Made by a program: the position numbers and the translations under genes. A DNA stretch of 9,836 nt, taken from the IMG/VR virus record IMGVR_UViG_2541047798_000001; one strand, 5' to 3'. Shown one piece after another: positions 1 through 7,063 of the stretch. How positions within the stretch are numbered: the first letter of the stretch is position 1; every line of letters begins with the position of its first letter. The notes beneath the pieces were generated by a model. The model was given only the letters and a program-made list of their open reading frames with translations, had not been told where the DNA came from and ran no database searches. The DNA comes from a virus. Lineage: Duplodnaviria; Heunggongvirae; Uroviricota; Caudoviricetes.

Positions 1-1239
1 ATGAGCAGGGCAATTCATAGACTTAGCGACACTCTTTTACGAAAATTAAGCGGATCACCAACCACAAAAAACACCTTTTTTAATGATGGTGGCAACCTTA
101 GCGTAAGGCATTCAACCAATGGCCTGTTAACCTGGTATTTCACTTACAGGGCCGGAACAGGCAGGAAGGTAGCCCCTGAACGTCTGAGGCTGGGAAATTA
201 TCCAGATTTGAGCCTGAAAGCAGCCAGGGAAAAAGCGTCGCAGTGTCGCGCCTGGCTTGCTGAGGGTAAAAATCCACGCCATGAGCTTAATCACACCGTA
301 CAGGAAGCGTTATCACCTGTTACGGTTAAGGAAGCGCTCACTTACTGGCTTGAATCGTACGCGAAGGAAAAGCGCACAGATTACGAATCTCTGAAAAGCC
401 GGATCAATACACACATAATCAGCCATATTGGTGCTATGCCGCTGGAAAAATGCGAGCTACGCCACTGGCTGACCTGTTTTGATCAGCTTGCTAAGCGTAA
501 TCCGGTATCAGCAGGATTTTTGTTACAGGTATGCAAGCAGGCGCTTAAGTACTGCCGCAAACGACGCTACGCAATTACCAACGTTCTAGATGATATGGTT
601 GTAGGTGATGTTGGGAAAAAAGCAGAAATAAGCGAGCGCATACTAACAAACAAGGAGCTTGGGGAATTACTCCGCGCCCTGGATGAAAAAATTTACCCAC
701 CGTACTACAGCGCCCTGATTCGCCTCCTGATTGTCTTCGGATGTCGTACCACTGAGCTAAGACGCTCTGAGGTCCAGGAATGGGATTTTAAAGAAATGCT
801 CTGGACCGTGCCGAAAGAACATAGCAAAACGAAGGTAGCAATATTCAGGCCAATACCGGAAGCGATCTTGCCGTTCGTAACGAAGCTGGTGGAGCAGAAC
901 AGGCACACGGGATTATTGCTCGGAGAACTGAAAGGGCAATCATCCGTATCAGAGTACGGAAGAACGGCACACAGACGTATTAATCAAGCCCCCTGGACGT
1001 TGCACGACATCCGGCACACGTTTACAACGATGCTGAACGATTTAGGCGTGGATCCTCATGTAGTGGAGCAGCTAACCGCGCACCAGTTGCCAGGAATGCA
1101 ACGAGTCTATAATCACTCCCGTTATCTTGATGCAAAACGTGACGCTCTTAATCTATGGGTTGAGCGTCTCGAGCTTCTCCAGAACAATGATGAAAAAATC
1201 GTTGTTATGACCCCGCGAATTTACTCCCAAAATTCTTGA
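1..1239 (+). CDS. int: Tyrosine recombinase / integrase, P4 (CP4-57) type
   Basis: 412-aa ORF. N-terminal arm-binding (DUF4102-like) region (GLLTWYFTYRAGTGRKVAPERLRLGNYPDLSLKAAREKA); C-terminal catalytic domain with HxxR box (LHDIRHTFTT) and catalytic Tyr context (VYNHSRY). Confidence 0.9.
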   Translation: MSRAIHRLSDTLLRKLSGSPTTKNTFFNDGGNLSVRHSTNGLLTWYFTYRAGTGRKVAPERLRLGNYPDLSLKAAREKASQCRAWLAEGKNPRHELNHTVQEALSPVTVKEALTYWLESYAKEKRTDYESLKSRINTHIISHIGAMPLEKCELRHWLTCFDQLAKRNPVSAGFLLQVCKQALKYCRKRRYAITNVLDDMVVGDVGKKAEISERILTNKELGELLRALDEKIYPPYYSALIRLLIVFGCRTTELRRSEVQEWDFKEMLWTVPKEHSKTKVAIFRPIPEAILPFVTKLVEQNRHTGLLLGELKGQSSVSEYGRTAHRRINQAPWTLHDIRHTFTTMLNDLGVDPHVVEQLTAHQLPGMQRVYNHSRYLDAKRDALNLWVERLELLQNNDEKIVVMTPRIYSQNS

Positions 1240-1247
1240 CAAATTAC

Positions 1248-1273
1248 GGCTATTTTTCTTGCGAAAAATAGCC
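1248..1273. repeat. Perfect 11-bp inverted repeat GGCTATTTTTC-ttgc-GAAAAATAGCC just 3' of the int stop; AU-rich hairpin, possible terminator or protein-binding site
   Basis: Read directly from sequence. No strong U-tract follows, so an intrinsic terminator role is uncertain. Confidence 0.4.
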
Positions 1274-1282
1274 CTCTAAAAT

Positions 1283-1315
1283 AAATCGTCGAATATCGGC
1301 AAATATCGACGATTT
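1283..1315. promoter_or_regulatory. Inverted repeat AAATCGTCGA-N13-TCGACGATTT in the AT-rich int-alpA intergenic region; candidate operator
   Basis: Perfect 10-bp arms read from sequence; lies in the ~410-bp AT-rich region upstream of alpA. Confidence 0.35.
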
Positions 1316-1648
1316 ATATGTGTCAAGTATTGAAAAAATTTGAAATGTCTTCTTCTGAGTTCTTATTCTCTGTTTCTTGATTGTTCCAACACCTGATGGT
1401 TTATCTATTTGTTTTTAATGAGATAATTTAAGTGTAATACCAAATGACGACATTTTTTTGTTGCGTCGCTTAAAAACTCGTGACACGATTTTATGAACAG
1501 CAGCAAACTCTAGCGAACTTTGACGAACATAAAGTTCAGAAAGGTTACGTATTCAATTTAAGAGGTAAGAAAAGCTAAGAAGTAATATCTTTCCGTATAT
1601 CCACAGCGAAACAAAAATTTCTATACGTAATTTTATGTAGGACTTTTT

Positions 1649-1858
1649 ATGCGCGAAATAAATGAAGATCGTGTAATCCGCGAAAAAGAATGCAGAGAGC
1701 TAACAGGCGTTTGCCGCACAACTCGTTACGAGATGGAAAAGCAGGGCCGCTTCCCCTCACGTATCAGTCTCGGCGGTCGTTCTGTTGGCTGGGTTAAGTC
1801 TGAGGTTATGGAATGGGTTAAAAGCAGAAATCGTATTAATTCAGGTAAGGCAGCGTAG
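1649..1858 (+). CDS. alpA: AlpA-family phage regulatory protein (excisionase-like HTH)
   Basis: 69 aa; SD AGGA about 6 nt upstream of the ATG; signature GGRSVGWVKSEVMEWV and preceding TGVCRTTRYEMEKQGRFP match the Phage_AlpA/Vis family; positioned directly after int as in P4-like and PICI elements. Confidence 0.85.
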   Translation: MREINEDRVIREKECRELTGVCRTTRYEMEKQGRFPSRISLGGRSVGWVKSEVMEWVKSRNRINSGKAA

Positions 1859-1884
1859 GGGGAACATATGACACATAAAACAAA

Positions 1885-1904
1885 GGCGACCTGTGGCGGT
1901 CGCC
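1885..1904 (-). terminator. GC-rich hairpin GGCGACC-tgtggc-GGTCGCC between convergent alpA and the minus-strand regulator; T-rich tract follows on the minus strand
   Basis: 7-bp perfect stem; on the minus strand it is followed by TTTGTTTTATGTGT; about 90 bp downstream of the minus-strand gene stop. Confidence 0.4.
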
Positions 1905-1992
1905 AATGGGAAAACACTAAACATAAGCCAGAACATCATAGCGATTTGCTGTCTGGTGGGCAATGTGCTCAGTGTGCTGGCTTGCTGGTGGG

Positions 1993-2172
1993 CTATTCCT
2001 GCTCTTTGGCCTTGCGGCGCTGGCGGCGTTTGATTTCGCCGCGCATGGCTGCGTTTATAAACTGTCCCGTGCTTTCGCCTTCTTCTTTCACGTTCTCCAT
2101 GCCTTCAATAATTTCATGGGCAATACGTGCAGTTACAGATTGTGATTTTGCATTCTTTGGACCCGTTGCCAT
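1993..2172 (-). CDS. Small DNA-binding protein, probable ribbon-helix-helix (Arc/CopG-like) repressor
   Basis: 59 aa from the internal ATG of ORF 1993..2211 (MATGPKNAKSQSVTARIAHEIIEGMENVKEEGESTGQFINAAMRGEIKRRQRRKAKEQE). SD GAGGGG lies 6 nt upstream of that ATG. N-terminal beta-strand-like KSQSVTARI followed by two predicted helices. Operator-like repeats lie in its promoter. Confidence 0.45.
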   Translation of the reverse strand: MATGPKNAKSQSVTARIAHEIIEGMENVKEEGESTGQFINAAMRGEIKRRQRRKAKEQE

Positions 2173-2192
2173 GTTTAACCCCTCATGTTTTT

Positions 2193-2275
2193 GGTGTAAG
2201 ACAATATACACGAAAAAAAAATATTTTGAAGGGTTGACGTGTAAGACACCATTATTTTACATTGTGTCTTACACC
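2193..2275. promoter_or_regulatory. Divergent promoter/operator region: three copies of GTGTAAGACA(C) at 2194-2203, 2239-2249 and inverted at 2264-2274
   Basis: Repeats read from sequence. Copies 2 and 3 form an inverted pair separated by 14 AT-rich bp and overlap a candidate TTGACG(2234)-N18-TACATT + strand promoter; copy 1 sits just downstream of a candidate minus-strand -10 (TATATT). Confidence 0.5.
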
Positions 2276-2371
2276 TTATTGATGAAAGGCACAGAAACGA
2301 CGAAACCCCGCACTGTAGGAGCAGTAACGGGGCTTCTAACCACCAACGATAGCAACAGTATCGAGGTAGCT

Positions 2372-2575
2372 ATGAGAAATCATACCACACACCCGAAAGG
2401 GCGGGACTCGCACAACCTGAATAAATACATCTGGCGTTTTATCGCCCTGAGCACGGCACAACCGCGCGTGATTACCATTGAGGCCACCAGCGAACAGGAA
2501 GCACGCCAGCAATCCCCGGCTGGCTGCGTGATGGTATTCGCCGCCCGTATTCGTCAGGGGGTGTGCCATGCCTGA
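2372..2575 (+). CDS. Small protein, possibly Icd-like (host cell division inhibitor family); first gene of the replication operon
   Basis: 67 aa (MRNHTTHPKGRDSHNLNKYIWRFIALSTAQPRVITIEATSEQEARQQSPAGCVMVFAARIRQGVCHA); SD GAGGT 4 nt before the ATG; the pattern IEATSEQEARQQ...VMVFAARIRQG resembles Icd-like proteins of P4-type elements as recalled. The rest of the 235-aa ORF 1868..2575 is treated as spurious. Confidence 0.4.
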   Translation: MRNHTTHPKGRDSHNLNKYIWRFIALSTAQPRVITIEATSEQEARQQSPAGCVMVFAARIRQGVCHA

Positions 2576-2888
2576 CATGACCAATTACCAGTACCTGATT
2601 AATCCGCATTTTAACTGTGAGCATGATATTGCTAAAAAAGTTTATTCCGCTGCGGATGGGGCTACTGACAATATATCAATGGGTATTGCGTCAATTGGTA
2701 GCCTGATGTGGTATGCGTCAGAAAATAAGGAATATGACGAAAAGTCCATGCGCATTGATATGGGTAATATCGGTTTGTTACTGGCAATGCTTGGGCAGTT
2801 TGATATTTCGTTACGGTGCACCATTGAAAATGCCAAAGATGCATTAAATGCTATAAAGAAAGCGAATACTGATTTAAATCGGGGATAA
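2568..2888 (+). CDS. Hypothetical protein (106 aa)
   Basis: ORF overlaps the previous stop by 8 nt (translational coupling); SD GGGGGTG upstream; no recognisable motif. Confidence 0.5.
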   Translation: MPDMTNYQYLINPHFNCEHDIAKKVYSAADGATDNISMGIASIGSLMWYASENKEYDEKSMRIDMGNIGLLLAMLGQFDISLRCTIENAKDALNAIKKANTDLNRG

Positions 2889-2894
2889 ATAATC

Positions 2895-3194
2895 ATGAGA
2901 ACATATTTATCTGGCTTGACTGCCAGCGGTTATGCACACCCCCAAATTATCCCCGGCGCTATTTATCTGGATAAGAACGGTAACAGAGTAACGGTAAAAG
3001 AACTGATGTTTGACCGAGTGTATTTTATCCGTGATGGCTATTCATTTCTTAGTTCGCTGAACGTGGAGATCTTTATTAGCAGATTCAGGCGGGAAATCCC
3101 GCTTTCCAGAAATAACCATGTGTCATGTATGGATGTTGATAAAAAACTACAGGAACTAAAAAACATGATTGCCGCGTGGAGAGAGCAGAAATGA
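2895..3194 (+). CDS. Hypothetical protein (99 aa), possibly DUF4222-like
   Basis: Segment PGAIYLDKNGNRVTVKELMFDRVYFIRDGYS resembles prophage DUF4222 proteins as recalled; stop overlaps the primase ATG (ATGA). Confidence 0.45.
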   Translation: MRTYLSGLTASGYAHPQIIPGAIYLDKNGNRVTVKELMFDRVYFIRDGYSFLSSLNVEIFISRFRREIPLSRNNHVSCMDVDKKLQELKNMIAAWREQK

Positions 3195-5314
3195 AAAAAG
3201 CGCCAAATTTAAAACACCAGCCACGTGACAAAATGACGGAAGTCATCATTTTTGCGGGTAGTGATGCGTGGGCACATGCGAAGCAGTGGCAGGAACAGGA
3301 CGGGCGACTGGCTGGCGACAGCGTGCCTCCTGTCTGGCTTGGAGAGCAACAACTTGCCGAACTGGATAAGCTGCAAATTGTGCCGGAAGGCCGAAAATCA
3401 GTACGCATATTCAGGGCCGGACATCTTGAGCCAGTAATGATCAAGGCGATTGGTCAGAAGCTGGCGGCGGCAGGCGTACAGGATGCAAATTTTTACCCTG
3501 ATGGAATGCACGGTCAGGAGGTGGAGAACTGGCGCGAATATCTAGCCCGTGAGCGGCAGAATCTTTCTGATGGTCTGGTTATTGAGTTTCCGGTAAAGAA
3601 AAAAGATACCGGAAGCCATAGCGATGACGAATTAAAGCCACGCGTTGAAAGTCGCGCCGATGGTGTTTTCTGGGTAACGCCCAAAGTGGATAAGCAGTCA
3701 GGCGAAATTATCCGGCCTGAGACGTGGTTATGTTCTCCGCTTGAACTACTGGGAACGGGGACGATCGGTAAAGAGCATTACCGCGTGATGCGCTGGAAAA
3801 AAACCGCAAACCATGAAGTCATCACAATGGCGATCCCGTGTGGTGGTATCGGCGACCGTGACGGCTGGCGGTTACTTAAAGATCACGGGCTGAACGTGAC
3901 AACCAACGGCAAATACAGGGCAATCCTGGCGGACTGGATGCAGTTAAGCGGAAGCCATGAGGAATGGCAGTTAAGCACAACAACGGGCTGGCATTTTGGC
4001 GCGTACATCATGCCGGACGGTTCGATCATTGGTGAATCTGAAAAACCGATCCTGTTTACCGGAAAAAGCGCCGCGATTAACGGTTATTCCGTGGCGGGCA
4101 CGGCGGATGGCTGGCGCGACAGCGTGGCGCGGCTGGCTGGCGGTAATGCCTCAATGATGCTGGGTGTGGCAACGTCACTGGCAGCGCCTTTAATTGGCCT
4201 TGTGGGTGCTGACGGCTTCGGGGTGCATCTTTTCGAACAGTCATCGGCAGGTAAGACCACCACGCAGAACATCGCATCAAGTTTATGGGGAGAGCCGGAC
4301 GCGCAGCGGCTGACCTGGTACGGCACGGCGTTAGGTATTGCCAATGAGGCCGAGGCCCATAATGACGGGCTTTTACCACTGGATGAGATAGGCCAGGCCG
4401 GAAATGCGCGGGAAGTGTCAACGTCTGCTTATACGCTGTTTAACGGTTCAGGGAAATTGCAGGGGGCGAAGGATGGCGGCAACAGGGAGATCAAACACTG
4501 GCGAACGGTGGCAATCAGCACCGGAGAAATGGACGTTGAGACATTCCTCAAAAGTGAGGGGATAAAAGTTAAGGCGGGGCAGCTTGTCCGACTGCTTAAC
4601 GTTCCGATGGAAAAAGCCACGAAATTTCACGAATACAGCAACGGTAAGGAACATGCTGACGCGTTAAAGGATGCCTGGACAGCAAATCACGGGGCGGCGG
4701 GTCGTGAGTGGGTTAAATGGCTGGCAGGCCACCAGCAGGAGGCAAAGGATACGGTAAGGGAATGCCGCGAACGGTGGCGCAACCTGATACCGGAGAGCTA
4801 CGGCGAGCAGGTCCACCGCGTGGGTGAACGTTTCGCCATACTGGAGGCCGCGCTTGTGCTTTCCGGTCATGTAACTGGCTGGGTCGTGCAGGAATGCCGC
4901 GACGCGATACAGCATAACTTTAATGCCTGGGTGAAGGAGTTCGGCACGGGTAACAGGGAATTTAAACAGATGGTTGAACAGGCTGAGGCGTTTTTGTCGT
5001 CGTTTGGGTTTAGCCGCTACCTTCCGTACCCCAATACAGATGAGCGTGATTTACCGATTAAAGAGCTTGCCGGATACAGAAAAGGGAGCATTCGCAACGA
5101 AGATGACGAGATGCGCTATTACACGTTCCCGCACGTGTTTGAGAGTGAGATAGCGAAGGGATTTAATCCGGCGCATTTTGCGCGTGCCCTGGATGCTGCC
5201 GGAATGCTGGAGAAGGGAAGCGATCGCCGATACAAAAAAAAGGCGCTGGGCAAGATTGGGGGTAAGCAGCATGTTTTTTACGTGCTGATGTTCCAGCCTG
5301 ATGATGAAGATTAA
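3191..5314 (+). CDS. Replication initiation protein: primase/helicase-like P-loop NTPase (DUF927 / P4 alpha-like)
   Basis: 707 aa from the ATG at 3191 (SD GGAGAG; ATGA overlap with the upstream ORF). Deviant Walker A FEQSSAGKTTT and Walker B LLPLDEIG; N-terminal segment EVIIFAGSDAWAHA may be Toprim-like; followed immediately by an iteron array. Confidence 0.7.
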   Translation: MKKAPNLKHQPRDKMTEVIIFAGSDAWAHAKQWQEQDGRLAGDSVPPVWLGEQQLAELDKLQIVPEGRKSVRIFRAGHLEPVMIKAIGQKLAAAGVQDANFYPDGMHGQEVENWREYLARERQNLSDGLVIEFPVKKKDTGSHSDDELKPRVESRADGVFWVTPKVDKQSGEIIRPETWLCSPLELLGTGTIGKEHYRVMRWKKTANHEVITMAIPCGGIGDRDGWRLLKDHGLNVTTNGKYRAILADWMQLSGSHEEWQLSTTTGWHFGAYIMPDGSIIGESEKPILFTGKSAAINGYSVAGTADGWRDSVARLAGGNASMMLGVATSLAAPLIGLVGADGFGVHLFEQSSAGKTTTQNIASSLWGEPDAQRLTWYGTALGIANEAEAHNDGLLPLDEIGQAGNAREVSTSAYTLFNGSGKLQGAKDGGNREIKHWRTVAISTGEMDVETFLKSEGIKVKAGQLVRLLNVPMEKATKFHEYSNGKEHADALKDAWTANHGAAGREWVKWLAGHQQEAKDTVRECRERWRNLIPESYGEQVHRVGERFAILEAALVLSGHVTGWVVQECRDAIQHNFNAWVKEFGTGNREFKQMVEQAEAFLSSFGFSRYLPYPNTDERDLPIKELAGYRKGSIRNEDDEMRYYTFPHVFESEIAKGFNPAHFARALDAAGMLEKGSDRRYKKKALGKIGGKQHVFYVLMFQPDDED

Positions 5315-5336
5315 TCCCCTGTGTGAGGAAAAAAAT

Positions 5337-5652
5337 TGCGGGTTATGCGGGTTATCCTGTGTATAAGTGTATTAAGTGCATGAATATAAAGGAAACCAAT
5401 AACCCGCACGTAACCCGCAAAAGGGCATTTATAACCCGCAAAAGCACGATTATAACCCGCAGGCGAATAACTGAAGTAACACCGGACAGTCATGCGTAAC
5501 CCGCAGAAAAAACCCCGTTTGCGGGTTATTTTGAGCGTTTTGCGGGTTACGTGGTGAGCAAATAATAAACAGGGCGTTTTGCAAAATACTGATATAAAAG
5601 GATAAAAAATGGTTAGCACGCTAAGATAACCCAATAACCCGCATAACCCGCA
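5337..5652. repeat. Iteron-type origin of replication: at least 11 copies of (A)TAACCCGCA / TGCGGGTTA plus an AT-rich (TA)5 tract
   Basis: Copies at 5337-5345, 5346-5354, 5520-5528, 5541-5549 (TGCGGGTTA orientation) and 5399-5408, 5411-5419, 5431-5440, 5452-5461, 5497-5505, 5634-5643, 5644-5652 (TAACCCGCA orientation); degenerate copy at 5626-5633; (TA)5 at 5661-5670. Sits directly 3' of the replication gene. Confidence 0.7.
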
Positions 5653-5684
5653 CATGTTTCTATATATATAAATTGAGGTGGCAA

Positions 5685-5936
5685 ATGACCAGAACACGCA
5701 GAGACAGAACAGAGCCAAAATATAAAGCGTTAGACATGACTGAGCACACCTTAAAGGTGGCAATCAGAACGATAGACCGCCACACGCGGGAAGGATACGC
5801 GAAGGAACATCCCGACCTGATAAGCGCATTCATGACCACGGCGGCGGAAAACTTTGCCACGCTGACAGAACGGGAGATTGCCGAAGCGGAACAGGTAACA
5901 ACCATCAACGTTAAAACCGGAGAGGTGGAATCATGA
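5685..5936 (+). CDS. Hypothetical protein (83 aa)
   Basis: ATG at 5685 with SD GAGGTGG (5675-5681); the TTG start at 5673 from the ORF track is less likely. Stop overlaps the ssb ATG (ATGA). Confidence 0.5.
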   Translation: MTRTRRDRTEPKYKALDMTEHTLKVAIRTIDRHTREGYAKEHPDLISAFMTTAAENFATLTEREIAEAEQVTTINVKTGEVES

Positions 5937-6343
5937 CAGCACAGATAGCGGCTTACGGTCGGCTGGTGGACGACCCGCAGGTAAAACAGACCAGCAAGGG
6001 CACACCGATGACGCTGGCGCGTATGGCGGTATCACTGCCATGCAGTCAGGCACAGGACGGACAGGCGACGTTATGGCTATCGGTCATCGCATTTGGTAAG
6101 CAGGCCGACTTCCTGGCTAAACATCAAAAAGGCGACGTTGCCAGCGTATCCGGCACGATGCAGGTAAGCCAGTGGACCGGACAGAACGGGGAGACGCGTC
6201 AGGGTTATCAGGTTATTGCAGACAGCGTAATCAGTGCCCGTGCGGCACGTCCTGGCGGGAACAGACGCAAAACCACAGGCGCACAGGGTAATCAGCCACC
6301 AGCGGGAGGCGATGACCCTTACGGTGATGATATTCCGTTCTGA
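5933..6343 (+). CDS. ssb: Single-stranded DNA-binding protein (SSB-like)
   Basis: 136 aa. OB-fold-like N-terminal region aligns by eye with E. coli SSB (AAYGRLVDDPQV ~ LVGNLGQDPEV; LWLSVIAFGKQADFLAKHQKGDVASVSGTMQVSQWTGQNGETRQGYQVIADSV ~ [50 protein letters not shown]); Gly/Pro/Gln-rich linker; C-terminal acidic tip GDDIPF identical to the SSB partner-binding motif. Confidence 0.8.
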   Translation: MTAQIAAYGRLVDDPQVKQTSKGTPMTLARMAVSLPCSQAQDGQATLWLSVIAFGKQADFLAKHQKGDVASVSGTMQVSQWTGQNGETRQGYQVIADSVISARAARPGGNRRKTTGAQGNQPPAGGDDPYGDDIPF

Positions 6344-6353
6344 GGGGGTGACG

Positions 6354-6602
6354 ATGGTACATGACCGCATAGCGGAAGAACTCGAAGCGAAAGGATTTTA
6401 CCGGAGGGCGGCGGCGCGATGGGGTGAAGTCATGATGCTGGTGGAGACAGACAAGGAACGGCATCACATCACGATGCGACGGCTGGAATGTTCCAGGAAG
6501 GCACAGAGGCCACCGGAGCCGCCAACGGAGAACTATGCAGACCTGAGAAATGCAGTAAATCGCACTTACGCAGACATGGGGCTGAGCAAATTAGCAGAGT
6601 AG
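6354..6602 (+). CDS. PerC-family transcriptional regulator-like protein
   Basis: 82 aa from the internal ATG at 6354 (SD GAGGGGG; begins 10 nt after the ssb stop). Motif AEELEAKGFYRRAAARWGEVM matches the PerC/Pch signature as recalled. The upstream part of ORF 6234..6602 overlaps ssb and is rejected. Confidence 0.5.
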   Translation: MVHDRIAEELEAKGFYRRAAARWGEVMMLVETDKERHHITMRRLECSRKAQRPPEPPTENYADLRNAVNRTYADMGLSKLAE

Positions 6603-6624
6603 GAATACCAGAACCACACCACAC

Positions 6625-6647
6625 AGCCGGAGCAATCCGGCTTTTTT
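6625..6647 (+). terminator. Rho-independent terminator after the replication operon
   Basis: Stem AGCCGGA / TCCGGCT with GCAA loop followed by T6. Confidence 0.7.
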
Positions 6648-6658
6648 GCGCCCAAAAA

Positions 6659-6693
6659 AAGCCCGATAAGGTCAGAGGTGGCTTATCGGGCTT
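6659..6693. terminator. Second hairpin, possibly a bidirectional terminator
   Basis: Perfect 12-bp stem AAGCCCGATAAG / CTTATCGGGCTT with 11-nt loop; A7 upstream and T4 downstream. Confidence 0.5.
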
Positions 6694-6772
6694 TTGCATA
6701 TGAGGTTTTTTGGTGCACTGACACACATGATCGGGATAATAATTTCATAATTTGCAACGCAACTCAATATCA

Positions 6773-6825
6773 TTGCACAAAATGCAATCATGATTATAAT
6801 CATAACTGGATGAACATCCAGTTAT
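6773..6825 (+). promoter_or_regulatory. Capsid-operon promoter: TTGCAC(6773-6778)-N16-TATAAT(6795-6800) embedded in three palindromes
   Basis: Perfect -10 and 4/6 -35. Palindromes: ATTGCA-caaaa-TGCAAT (6772-6788), ATGATTATAATCAT (6790-6803), ATAACTGGATG-AA-CATCCAGTTAT (6802-6825, at the predicted start region). Confidence 0.5.
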
Positions 6826-6856
6826 GATTTTTTAAGTCAAAGAGGAATTTCTTACT

Positions 6857-7063
6857 ATGGCTGAAGAGAAAAAAGGCGGTGTTTCGGTGTACATAAGCCC
6901 CGACATCGTGAAGGCGCTCAAGGAACGCCACCAGCAGAACGTAAAAGCAGGCATTGCGGCAGGACTTGATCCGCTGGCGATGGTTGAGCCGTCAACAGGC
7001 TGGCAGGTACGCGCCTATTTACGCGCGGCGCTGGGTATGAATCAGGTTCACGGGGGTGAATAA
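6857..7063 (+). CDS. Hypothetical small protein (68 aa), first gene of the capsid operon
   Basis: SD AGAGGA upstream; stop overlaps the capsid ATG (TAATG). N-terminus (GGVSVYISPDIVKALKERHQQ) is compatible with a ribbon-helix-helix fold, but this is uncertain. Confidence 0.5.
   Translation: MAEEKKGGVSVYISPDIVKALKERHQQNVKAGIAAGLDPLAMVEPSTGWQVRAYLRAALGMNQVHGGE

Follow-up and report, generated by a model that had tools for sequence, protein, structure and literature searches.

In Gram-negative phage-inducible chromosomal islands (PICIs), the replication origin is located 3' of the rep gene and consists of two iteron sets placed around an AT-rich region (PMC6092414, Fillol-Salom et al. 2018). For the pri-rep-ori region of EcCICFT073, deletions tested on plasmids showed that maintenance is rep- and ori-dependent (PMC6092414; see also PMC10111431). 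In the pathogenicity islands of Staphylococcus aureus (SaPIs), Rep is a self-loading helicase whose C-terminal winged helix binds 6-12 iterons directly downstream of rep (PMC9371898, Qiao et al. 2022), and an AT-rich centre divides the iterons into groups of at least two per side that point in opposite directions (PMC9371898). Here we describe an array of short repeats at positions 5337-5672 of a 9,836-bp stretch of DNA recorded as a virus of the Caudoviricetes (IMG/VR record IMGVR_UViG_2541047798_000001; the whole stretch is called the window below). The window is an EcCICFT073-like Escherichia coli PICI, and comparative analysis points to 5337-5672 as its Rep-dependent vegetative replication origin, a reading to which we give a probability of roughly 85%.

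We favor this reading because the placement and layout of the array are conserved among related islands, the iteron word covaries with the wing of the predicted winged helix of Rep, the array is exchanged together with rep in the slot that holds the tested EcCICFT073 origin, and the iteron bases are selectively conserved. The array has all the features of a PICI or SaPI origin that can be recognized at the level of sequence. A first-pass annotation, made from the letters alone, had proposed that the array is bound by the adjacent replication protein, and the same comparisons (72/77 loci with an array, wing covariation, cassette exchange, 1/99 iteron bases changed) strongly support this proposal. 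The array would be the cis site that the island needs for self-amplification after induction by a helper phage, and its recognition accounts for a gap left without annotation in a common E. coli satellite. By itself the finding is routine, and satellites are already known, at textbook level, to have elements of this kind at this location. A fixed layout with interchangeable words and a short covarying protein segment, on the other hand, would provide natural specificity variants for the reading of origins by the Rep/Cch family, and offers a means of predicting whether or not satellites can share a replication protein. For annotation, the rule that follows is to look for such an origin at a distance of 20-30 bp past the stop codon of a DUF927 rep gene. 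In the text of publications, we found neither this iteron nor the layout shared across genera, and the iteron string, when searched for in the literature, matched nothing but unrelated primers.

Repeat array downstream of rep

The array fills the gap between the rep stop codon at 5314 and the next ATG at 5685, and its first iteron starts at 5337. A search of the whole window for the 9-mer TAACCCGCA gave 11 exact copies within 5337-5652, seven on the plus strand (starting at 5400, 5411, 5432, 5453, 5497, 5635, and 5644) and four on the minus strand (5337, 5346, 5520, and 5541), and no exact copy in the rest of the 9,836 bp. The base 5' of this core is A in eight copies and G in three. The first-pass annotation had listed at least 11 copies of a 9-10-bp core in both orientations, and both the number and the core length were confirmed. 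When up to one mismatch was allowed, 13 matches were obtained against 2.6 +/- 1.5 expected, and a count of 13 was reached in 0/200 dinucleotide-preserving shuffles. A degenerate twelfth iteron, TAACCCAAT, is located at 5627-5635. The iterons are spaced 9 bp apart in both outer tandem pairs, and the remaining regular steps are one of 11 bp and three of 21 bp (5411-5432-5453 and 5520-5541); the two-turn spacing reported earlier is thus found at the 21-bp steps, the others being 9 and 11 bp. Such phasing suggests that binding would occur on one face of the helix.

The iteron sets are opposed to each other: two minus-strand copies are followed by a 45-bp spacer and four plus-strand copies, and the arrangement recurs, inverted, at 5520-5652. 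The entire array forms a large imperfect palindrome, in which 5407-5442 is 81% complementary to 5518-5553 over 36 nt (inverted repeat I1) and 5330-5355 is 88% complementary to 5634-5659 (inverted repeat I2). The A+T content of the array region is 58% (GC 0.42), compared with a GC content of ~0.51-0.52 in the final part of rep. The most AT-rich stretch of the region in this window is spacer 2 (84% in 25 bp). By analogy with the SaPI/PICI model, it is spacer 1 (5355-5399), between the opposed sets on the left, that would most likely be the DNA-unwinding region.

The gap is probably free of genes and structured RNA. No coding sequence is annotated between rep and 5685 in the RefSeq annotation of a 99.8%-identical copy, and two mechanically called open reading frames, 5311-5763 on the minus strand and 5323-5499 on the plus strand, were rejected as genes since they are absent from that annotation and are built of the repeats. 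An Rfam scan of 5250-5750 (E <= 1) gave no family and only two chance-level matches far under the gathering scores. A terminator scan gave only two minus-strand hairpins, a number expected from shuffles. The convergent iterons starting at 5497 and 5520 (5497-5528) enclose AACCCCGTTTGCGGGTT and, read on the minus strand, score as a hairpin resembling a terminator; on the plus strand, a T-rich run follows this hairpin.

Array layout and iteron word among Rep relatives

We surveyed 80 loci encoding Rep relatives (52-75% identity), nearly all of which were from Enterobacterales and 77 of which had enough downstream sequence to be evaluated. An array was counted when the 650 bp that follow the rep stop contained four or more exact copies of one 8-mer. 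By this criterion, an array was present in 72 of the 77 evaluable loci, compared with 18 of 607 control windows taken from the same loci. The arrays of most loci begin 22-31 bp past the rep stop with a pair of copies 9 bp apart ('<9<'), and in the common layout ('<9< gap >11>21>(21>)') two or three tandem copies at 9 bp are followed by a spacer and then by oppositely oriented copies with steps of 11 and 21 bp. A long form with an inverted second module, as in the window, accounts for 47 of 76 arrays, and a short form with the left module only accounts for the other 29. E. coli Evo1 and MB06102 have only this left part, namely two inverted copies, an AT-rich spacer, and four direct copies, while the convergent arrangement '> 22-23 <' recurs in the long-form origins.

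The first spacer has a mean A+T content of 78% over the 76 arrays, compared with 46% in the last 600 bp of rep. The distance across it falls into clusters of 51-55, 60-65, 71-74, and 80-83 bp (~53, 63, 73, and 82 bp in 44, 24, 4, and 3 loci, respectively), so that its length changes in steps of ~10 bp, about one helical turn, which suggests that the two iteron sets must keep the same helix face. A motif resembling TGATTTATAAGG also recurs in the first spacer across iteron classes. The second spacer is AT-rich in many long-form loci and only 26-44% A+T in some; as several lineages lack an AT-rich second spacer, melting at a second site is not a general property of these origins. Selective conservation of the iterons was evident from E. 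coli RM13322, which is ~85% identical to the window across the gap: only 1 of 99 iteron bases differs, compared with 56 of the 271 other bases (Fisher p = 1.4e-7).

Several further observations concern individual loci. The right tandem iterons vary in number, with five at 8-9 bp in RM13322 (3429-3470 of that locus) and two plus one degenerate copy here (5627-5652), which is consistent with slippage. Two loci assigned to distant taxa, a contig labelled Chryseobacterium sp. 18061 (L026) and Pseudomonas lundensis I31 (L065), carry Enterobacterales-type rep-ori cassettes, and the origin of L026 has the same layout and word as the Enterobacter loci L020 and L034; these cases could be explained by contamination or mislabelling, or else by a wide spread of the satellites through transfer. 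A loose DnaA consensus has four matches in the whole window against 0.9 expected. Only the TAACCCGC lineage has DnaA-box-like sites (4 of 76 arrays), and a perfect DnaA box, TGTGGATAA, adjoins the left iteron pair of MB06102 (~3160-3168 of that locus). As the box is confined to one sublineage, it was rejected as a general feature of the origin.

When the iteron words were brought into a common register, they fell into about 18 classes. The commonest word is TGAACCAACA and the word of the window is (A)TAACCCGCA; others include TAACCCGT, TAACCCAC, GAACCGAC, GAGACAAC, GGGACAAC, GGGATAAG, GGTACAAC, GACCCGAC, and GACACACT. We compared these classes with the Rep sequences. At Rep residues 670-700, identity was 0.81 in pairs of the same class and 0.44 in pairs of different classes, the largest gap along the protein; this difference of 0.37 compares with 0.06-0.20 in most 30-residue windows. 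Mutual information with iteron class was highest at columns 684, 695, 681, 687, and 686. At matched identity of the core, C-terminal identity was 0.64-0.94 in same-word pairs and 0.45-0.62 in different-word pairs. The clearest case is provided by loci L034 and L052, which have collinear origins and share 97% identity in the Rep core. The iterons are all GAACCAAC in one and all GAGACAAC in the other, and the wings read QRKSPRINGRQFNV and QGRV-REDGRQIRV, respectively. Such a concerted change is what co-evolution of a wing and its site looks like, and this covariation argues that the iterons are specific to the cognate Rep.

Rep itself has 707 amino acids, with its start as in RefSeq WP_000710166, and a DUF927 core at residues 173-440 (Pfam E 1.6e-48). 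In profile comparisons, it matched PDB entry 8tch ('Pathogenicity island protein'; E 1.4e-17), which we take to be a SaPI Rep-type protein, and Cch of the staphylococcal cassette chromosome mec (SCCmec) (5dgk; E 9.5e-5), and the latter alignment extends through the C-terminal winged helix. HTH_56, the helix-turn-helix of Cch, gave a weak match at residues 637-706 (E 6.9e-4). A Foldseek search of the PDB with a low-quality AlphaFold2 model of Rep, built on a 17-sequence alignment, found only Cch, at 13-14% identity. Rep thus appears to be a helicase-initiator of the Rep/Cch family, and the C-terminal matches point weakly to a winged helix of the Cch type. The gene had earlier been called a primase/helicase gene. 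The helicase part of this name is supported by DUF927 and by the relatives 8tch and Cch, whereas the primase part is not, as Pfam gives only DUF927 and the weak HTH_56 match for Rep and no primase domain. The label 'primase' stems from the naming of homologues.

Island context and cassette exchange

The window carries int, alpA, rep, ssb, perC, and capsid and decoration genes, all on the plus strand (Table 1), as expected of a resident PICI. As a reference we used the EcCICFT073 island located in the CFT073 chromosome. Identity to EcCICFT073 is 95% over 5757-9001 and 79-84% over 1-3603, and there is no match between 3603 and 5757. Since the flanks are alike, most of rep together with the array forms an exchanged cassette. 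Similarity to islands of other rep types restarts at ~5683 (5757 for EcCICFT073). In E. coli 97-3250, a RepA-type (AAA_25) helicase replaces DUF927, the downstream gene is 97.5% identical, and the gap has six copies of AAGTGAG; in EcCICFT073, the helicase is of the D5_N/Pox_D5 (DUF5906) type and ~13 copies of a GGTAGAC/TA-type repeat occupy the same slot. Islands with RepA-type and P4-like helicases therefore have different repeats in the same slot next to the same downstream gene.

The converse was found in E. coli E110019, where a rep-ori cassette 99.8% identical to that of the window is joined to an HK97-type capsid-portal-terminase module (10715-17349 of that locus; similar to capsid-forming PICIs, cf-PICI-like) in place of the gpE/gpD-type capsid module present here (7063-8892). 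Because the same origin occurs with two different packaging modules, it travels with rep and not with the packaging genes; replication and packaging modules, as judged from these comparisons, reassort freely. Among 5426 complete genomes, 1063 have at least a partial match to the island DNA and 117 have a full match.

The left breakpoint of the cassette lies inside rep. The N-terminal ~135 amino acids of Rep (3191-3603) form a separate alpha/beta domain (pLDDT, the predicted local distance difference test score, 63-87 in the model) that is common to three unrelated helicase types in sister islands, with 84% DNA identity to the EcCICFT073 D5_N/Pox_D5 protein gene and 71% protein identity to the AAA_25 helicase of 97-3250. 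Pfam gave no match for this domain, which also lacks a primase motif, and Foldseek gave only non-significant Rossmann-like matches and DnaG at E 0.55, which provides no evidence of a primase fold. It may act as a shared adaptor that serves, for example, the DUF4222 protein or a host factor. Towards the right end of the island, 8924-9189 (~270 bp) matches EcCICFT073 in inverted orientation at 94% identity, with short inverted matches beside it at 9185-9256 and 9450-9520; an inversion or inverted repeats may thus be present at 8924-9520.

Table 1. Features of the window and of the putative origin region (positions in the 9,836-bp window)
Feature	Position	Strand	Remarks
Tyrosine integrase	1-1239	+	
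AlpA	1649-1858	+	
Icd-like gene	1868-2575	+	
DUF4222	2895-3194	+	
rep	3191-5314	+	
Predicted winged-helix wing codons	5207..5281	+	Rep residues 673-697 (EKGSDRRYKKKALGKIGGKQHVFYV); candidate iteron-specificity determinant
Left outer iteron pair	5337..5354	-	Head-to-tail, 9 bp apart; TGCGGGTTA TGCGGGTTA on the plus strand
Spacer 1, AT-rich	5355..5399 (45 bp)	.	25-bp windows up to 76% A+T
DnaA-box-like TGTGTATAA (also written TTATACACA)	5358-5366		In spacer 1
Motif TGAATATAAAGG	5381-5392		In spacer 1; local form of the TGATTTATAAGG-like motif
Inner iteron set	5400..5461	+	Four direct copies: 5400, 5411, 5432, 5453 (steps 11, 21, 21)
Lone iteron	5497..5505	+	Convergent with the copy at 5520
Second inner set	5520..5549	-	Two copies with a 21-bp step; inverted counterpart of those at 5411-5440
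Spacer 2, AT-rich	5550..5634	.	84% A+T in 25-bp windows at 5585-5609; holds the degenerate iteron 5627-5635
Right outer iteron pair	5635..5652	+	9 bp apart; inverted image of 5337-5354
TA palindrome GTTTCTATATATATAAA	5656..5672	.	Contains (TA)5 at 5661-5670
Ribosome-binding site of next gene	5675-5678		
First gene 3' of the origin, 83 aa (orf83), PHROG 1231	5685-5936	+	Right border of the exchangeable rep-ori cassette
SSB	5933-6343	+	
PerC	6354-6602	+	
Lambda gpE-like capsid gene	7063-8118	+	
Decoration gene	8131-8466	+	

Initiation model and comparison with known origins

By analogy with the described islands, replication would proceed as follows. A helper phage would switch on AlpA and the island would be excised, after which Rep would bind the iterons via the wing of its winged helix. 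Rep oligomers forming on the opposed sets 5337-5354 and 5400-5461 would melt the ~45-bp AT-rich spacer 5355-5399, and Rep would load itself there, encircling the DNA as the replicative helicase; host primase and polymerase would finish replication. The right half (5497-5652), which repeats the module in inverted orientation, would probably be a second loading or melting site or a link to the expression of the downstream operon, which is the least certain step of the model.

The first-pass annotation had suggested that the (TA)5 tract at the right edge could have an unwinding role. The tract (5661-5670) is real and conserved: in most loci with a long-form origin, of any iteron word, the origin ends with the motif TTTTGyTTATATATAcrAAAA, which directly precedes the next gene's ribosome-binding site, and the motif was seen after the last iterons in L002 (RM13322), L007, L008, L016, L061, L070, and other loci. 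It also stays with the rep-ori cassette at the recombination border (~5683). However, the motif is absent from the short-form origins and from the RepA-type cassette, and the universal AT-rich element is instead the spacer between the opposed sets. The TA palindrome could be an auxiliary unwinding element, an activator-dependent promoter, or a host-factor site.

Several points weigh against the origin reading. By the criterion used, five of the 77 homologous loci have no array. The winged-helix assignment comes from a sub-threshold Pfam match (24.2 bits, cut-off 26.2) and the profile alignment to Cch, and the AlphaFold model, which is poor (mean pLDDT 51, and <50 for residues 581-707), gives no confirmation of the wing. 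The wing codons are <130 bp from the array, so that physical linkage could inflate the correlation between Rep and the iterons, and one word, GAACCGAC, is shared by two different wing types. The simple SaPI model leaves the right half and the TA palindrome unexplained. Finally, we infer Rep binding, replication, and the melting site alike from sequence and analogy.

The extent of the core origin is the point on which an alternative has the most to offer. The core could be the left module 5337-5461 only, with the right module 5497-5652 acting as an auxiliary Rep-binding cluster, a looping enhancer, or a handcuffing device for copy control; crr of phage P4 is likewise said to loop to the origin. 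The left module appears sufficient in Evo1, MB06102, and, in all, the 29 surveyed arrays that have no other, and the right module is an inverted partial copy of it (I1 and I2), whose spacer in several lineages, with 26-44% A+T, speaks against a second melting site there. In this window, however, the A+T content peaks in spacer 2 (84% in 25 bp), and enhancer, handcuffing, and second loading site look alike computationally. We regard a left-only core as possible, though well short of even odds. A different division of labor is that the repeats, especially the right half and the TA palindrome, mainly form a Rep-controlled switch for the orf83-ssb-perC-capsid operon and are not a replication start. 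Iteron plasmids commonly reuse Rep sites for autoregulation; here, many long-form loci have the TA palindrome, irrespective of their iteron word, 6-10 nt ahead of the following gene's Shine-Dalgarno sequence, and the tandem iterons occupy the position expected of a -35 element or an activator site. Against such a switch, a scan of 5200-5800 gave no sigma-70-like promoter, the 29 short-form arrays keep the opposed iteron sets and the AT-rich spacer without the right half and the TA motif, the layout fits tested SaPI/PICI origins, and Gram-negative PICIs have been described as transcribed unidirectionally from upstream (PMC6092414). We thus consider a switch in place of an origin unlikely, although the array may have a dual role as origin and transcriptional switch.

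Repeat arrays that are bound by a terminase small subunit or by integrase, as at pac/cosB and integrase arm sites, are also common, and the array might accordingly be a packaging (cos/pac) or recombination site. This is very improbable, because the identical array accompanies an HK97-type packaging module in E110019 and an unrelated one of the gpE/gpD type here, changes with rep while the packaging genes stay 95% identical, and covaries with the Rep C-terminus; moreover, the integrase gene and the island ends are >4 kb away. Repetitiveness alone would also fit a chance or selfish repeat resembling repetitive extragenic palindromes (REP) or miniature inverted-repeat transposable elements (MITE), with no role in the island. 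Shuffled sequences never reached the observed count (0/200), position, orientation, and spacing are kept across genera, and the iteron bases are selectively conserved, which makes this explanation scarcely credible. Returning to the array as an origin, we tentatively put forward a more elaborate proposal, which we hold to be doubtful as a whole: the long-form origin would be a composite of a core origin and an inverted module, whose TA palindrome would serve as a Rep-dependent promoter or second unwinding site tying ssb-perC-capsid expression to initiation, and wing residues ~680-696 would form a recognition code giving at least ~18 mutually exclusive specificities. If true, such a wing code would let co-resident satellites of Enterobacterales replicate without cross-talk.

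How the array compares with the known types of origin can now be stated. In iteron plasmids such as pPS10, RK2, F, P1, and R6K, the iterons measure 17-22 bp, a dedicated WH1-WH2 initiator binds them and recruits DnaB, and the origin includes DnaA boxes and an AT-rich 13-mer unwinding element. The array resembles these origins in its Rep-associated iterons beside AT-rich DNA and in the DnaA-box-like site at 5358-5366, and differs from them in that the repeats are 9-10 bp and the predicted binding protein is itself a helicase. An iteron-plasmid origin of the RepA/pi/TrfA type was rejected on the basis of the 9-10-bp iterons, the adjacent helicase, and the single DnaA-like site present in only 4/76 arrays. 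The alpha protein of phage P4 combines a primase with a superfamily 3 (D5-like) helicase and reportedly binds, through its C-terminal domain, short repeats clustered at two places, ori and crr. The P4 system is likewise a satellite replicon with a multifunctional helicase-initiator and short repeats. The first-pass annotation had likened the array to both PICI and P4 origins; the layout and the slot are indeed of the PICI type, but the likeness to P4 did not hold. The P4 type I repeat TGTTCACC has 0 matches in the window, and Pfam detects no primase, D5_N, or Pox_D5 domain in Rep, whereas the EcCICFT073 protein has them. A P4-type ori/crr was therefore rejected, the initiator being a DUF927 protein of a family unlike P4 alpha.

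The SaPI1/SaPI5 origins and SCCmec Cch are closer. The initiators are homologous (8tch and 5dgk) and belong with self-loading MCM-like helicases, with low sequence identity to their staphylococcal counterparts (13-14% when aligned to Cch by Foldseek), and the origins share the position directly downstream of rep and the opposed iterons around an AT-rich centre, represented here by the left module. Unlike the SaPI origins, with iterons of 5-6 bp, the array has iterons of 9-10 bp, a second inverted module, a terminal TA palindrome, and a Gram-negative host. The EcCICFT073 origin differs from the array in its initiator, which is D5_N/DUF5906/Pox_D5 there and DUF927 here, and in its word, which is of the GGTAGAC/TA type there and TAACCCGCA here. 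The two are nevertheless alike in belonging to the same island type, in occupying the same slot between rep and orf83-ssb-perC within flanks that are 79-95% identical, and in having many short iterons in both orientations around AT-rich DNA.

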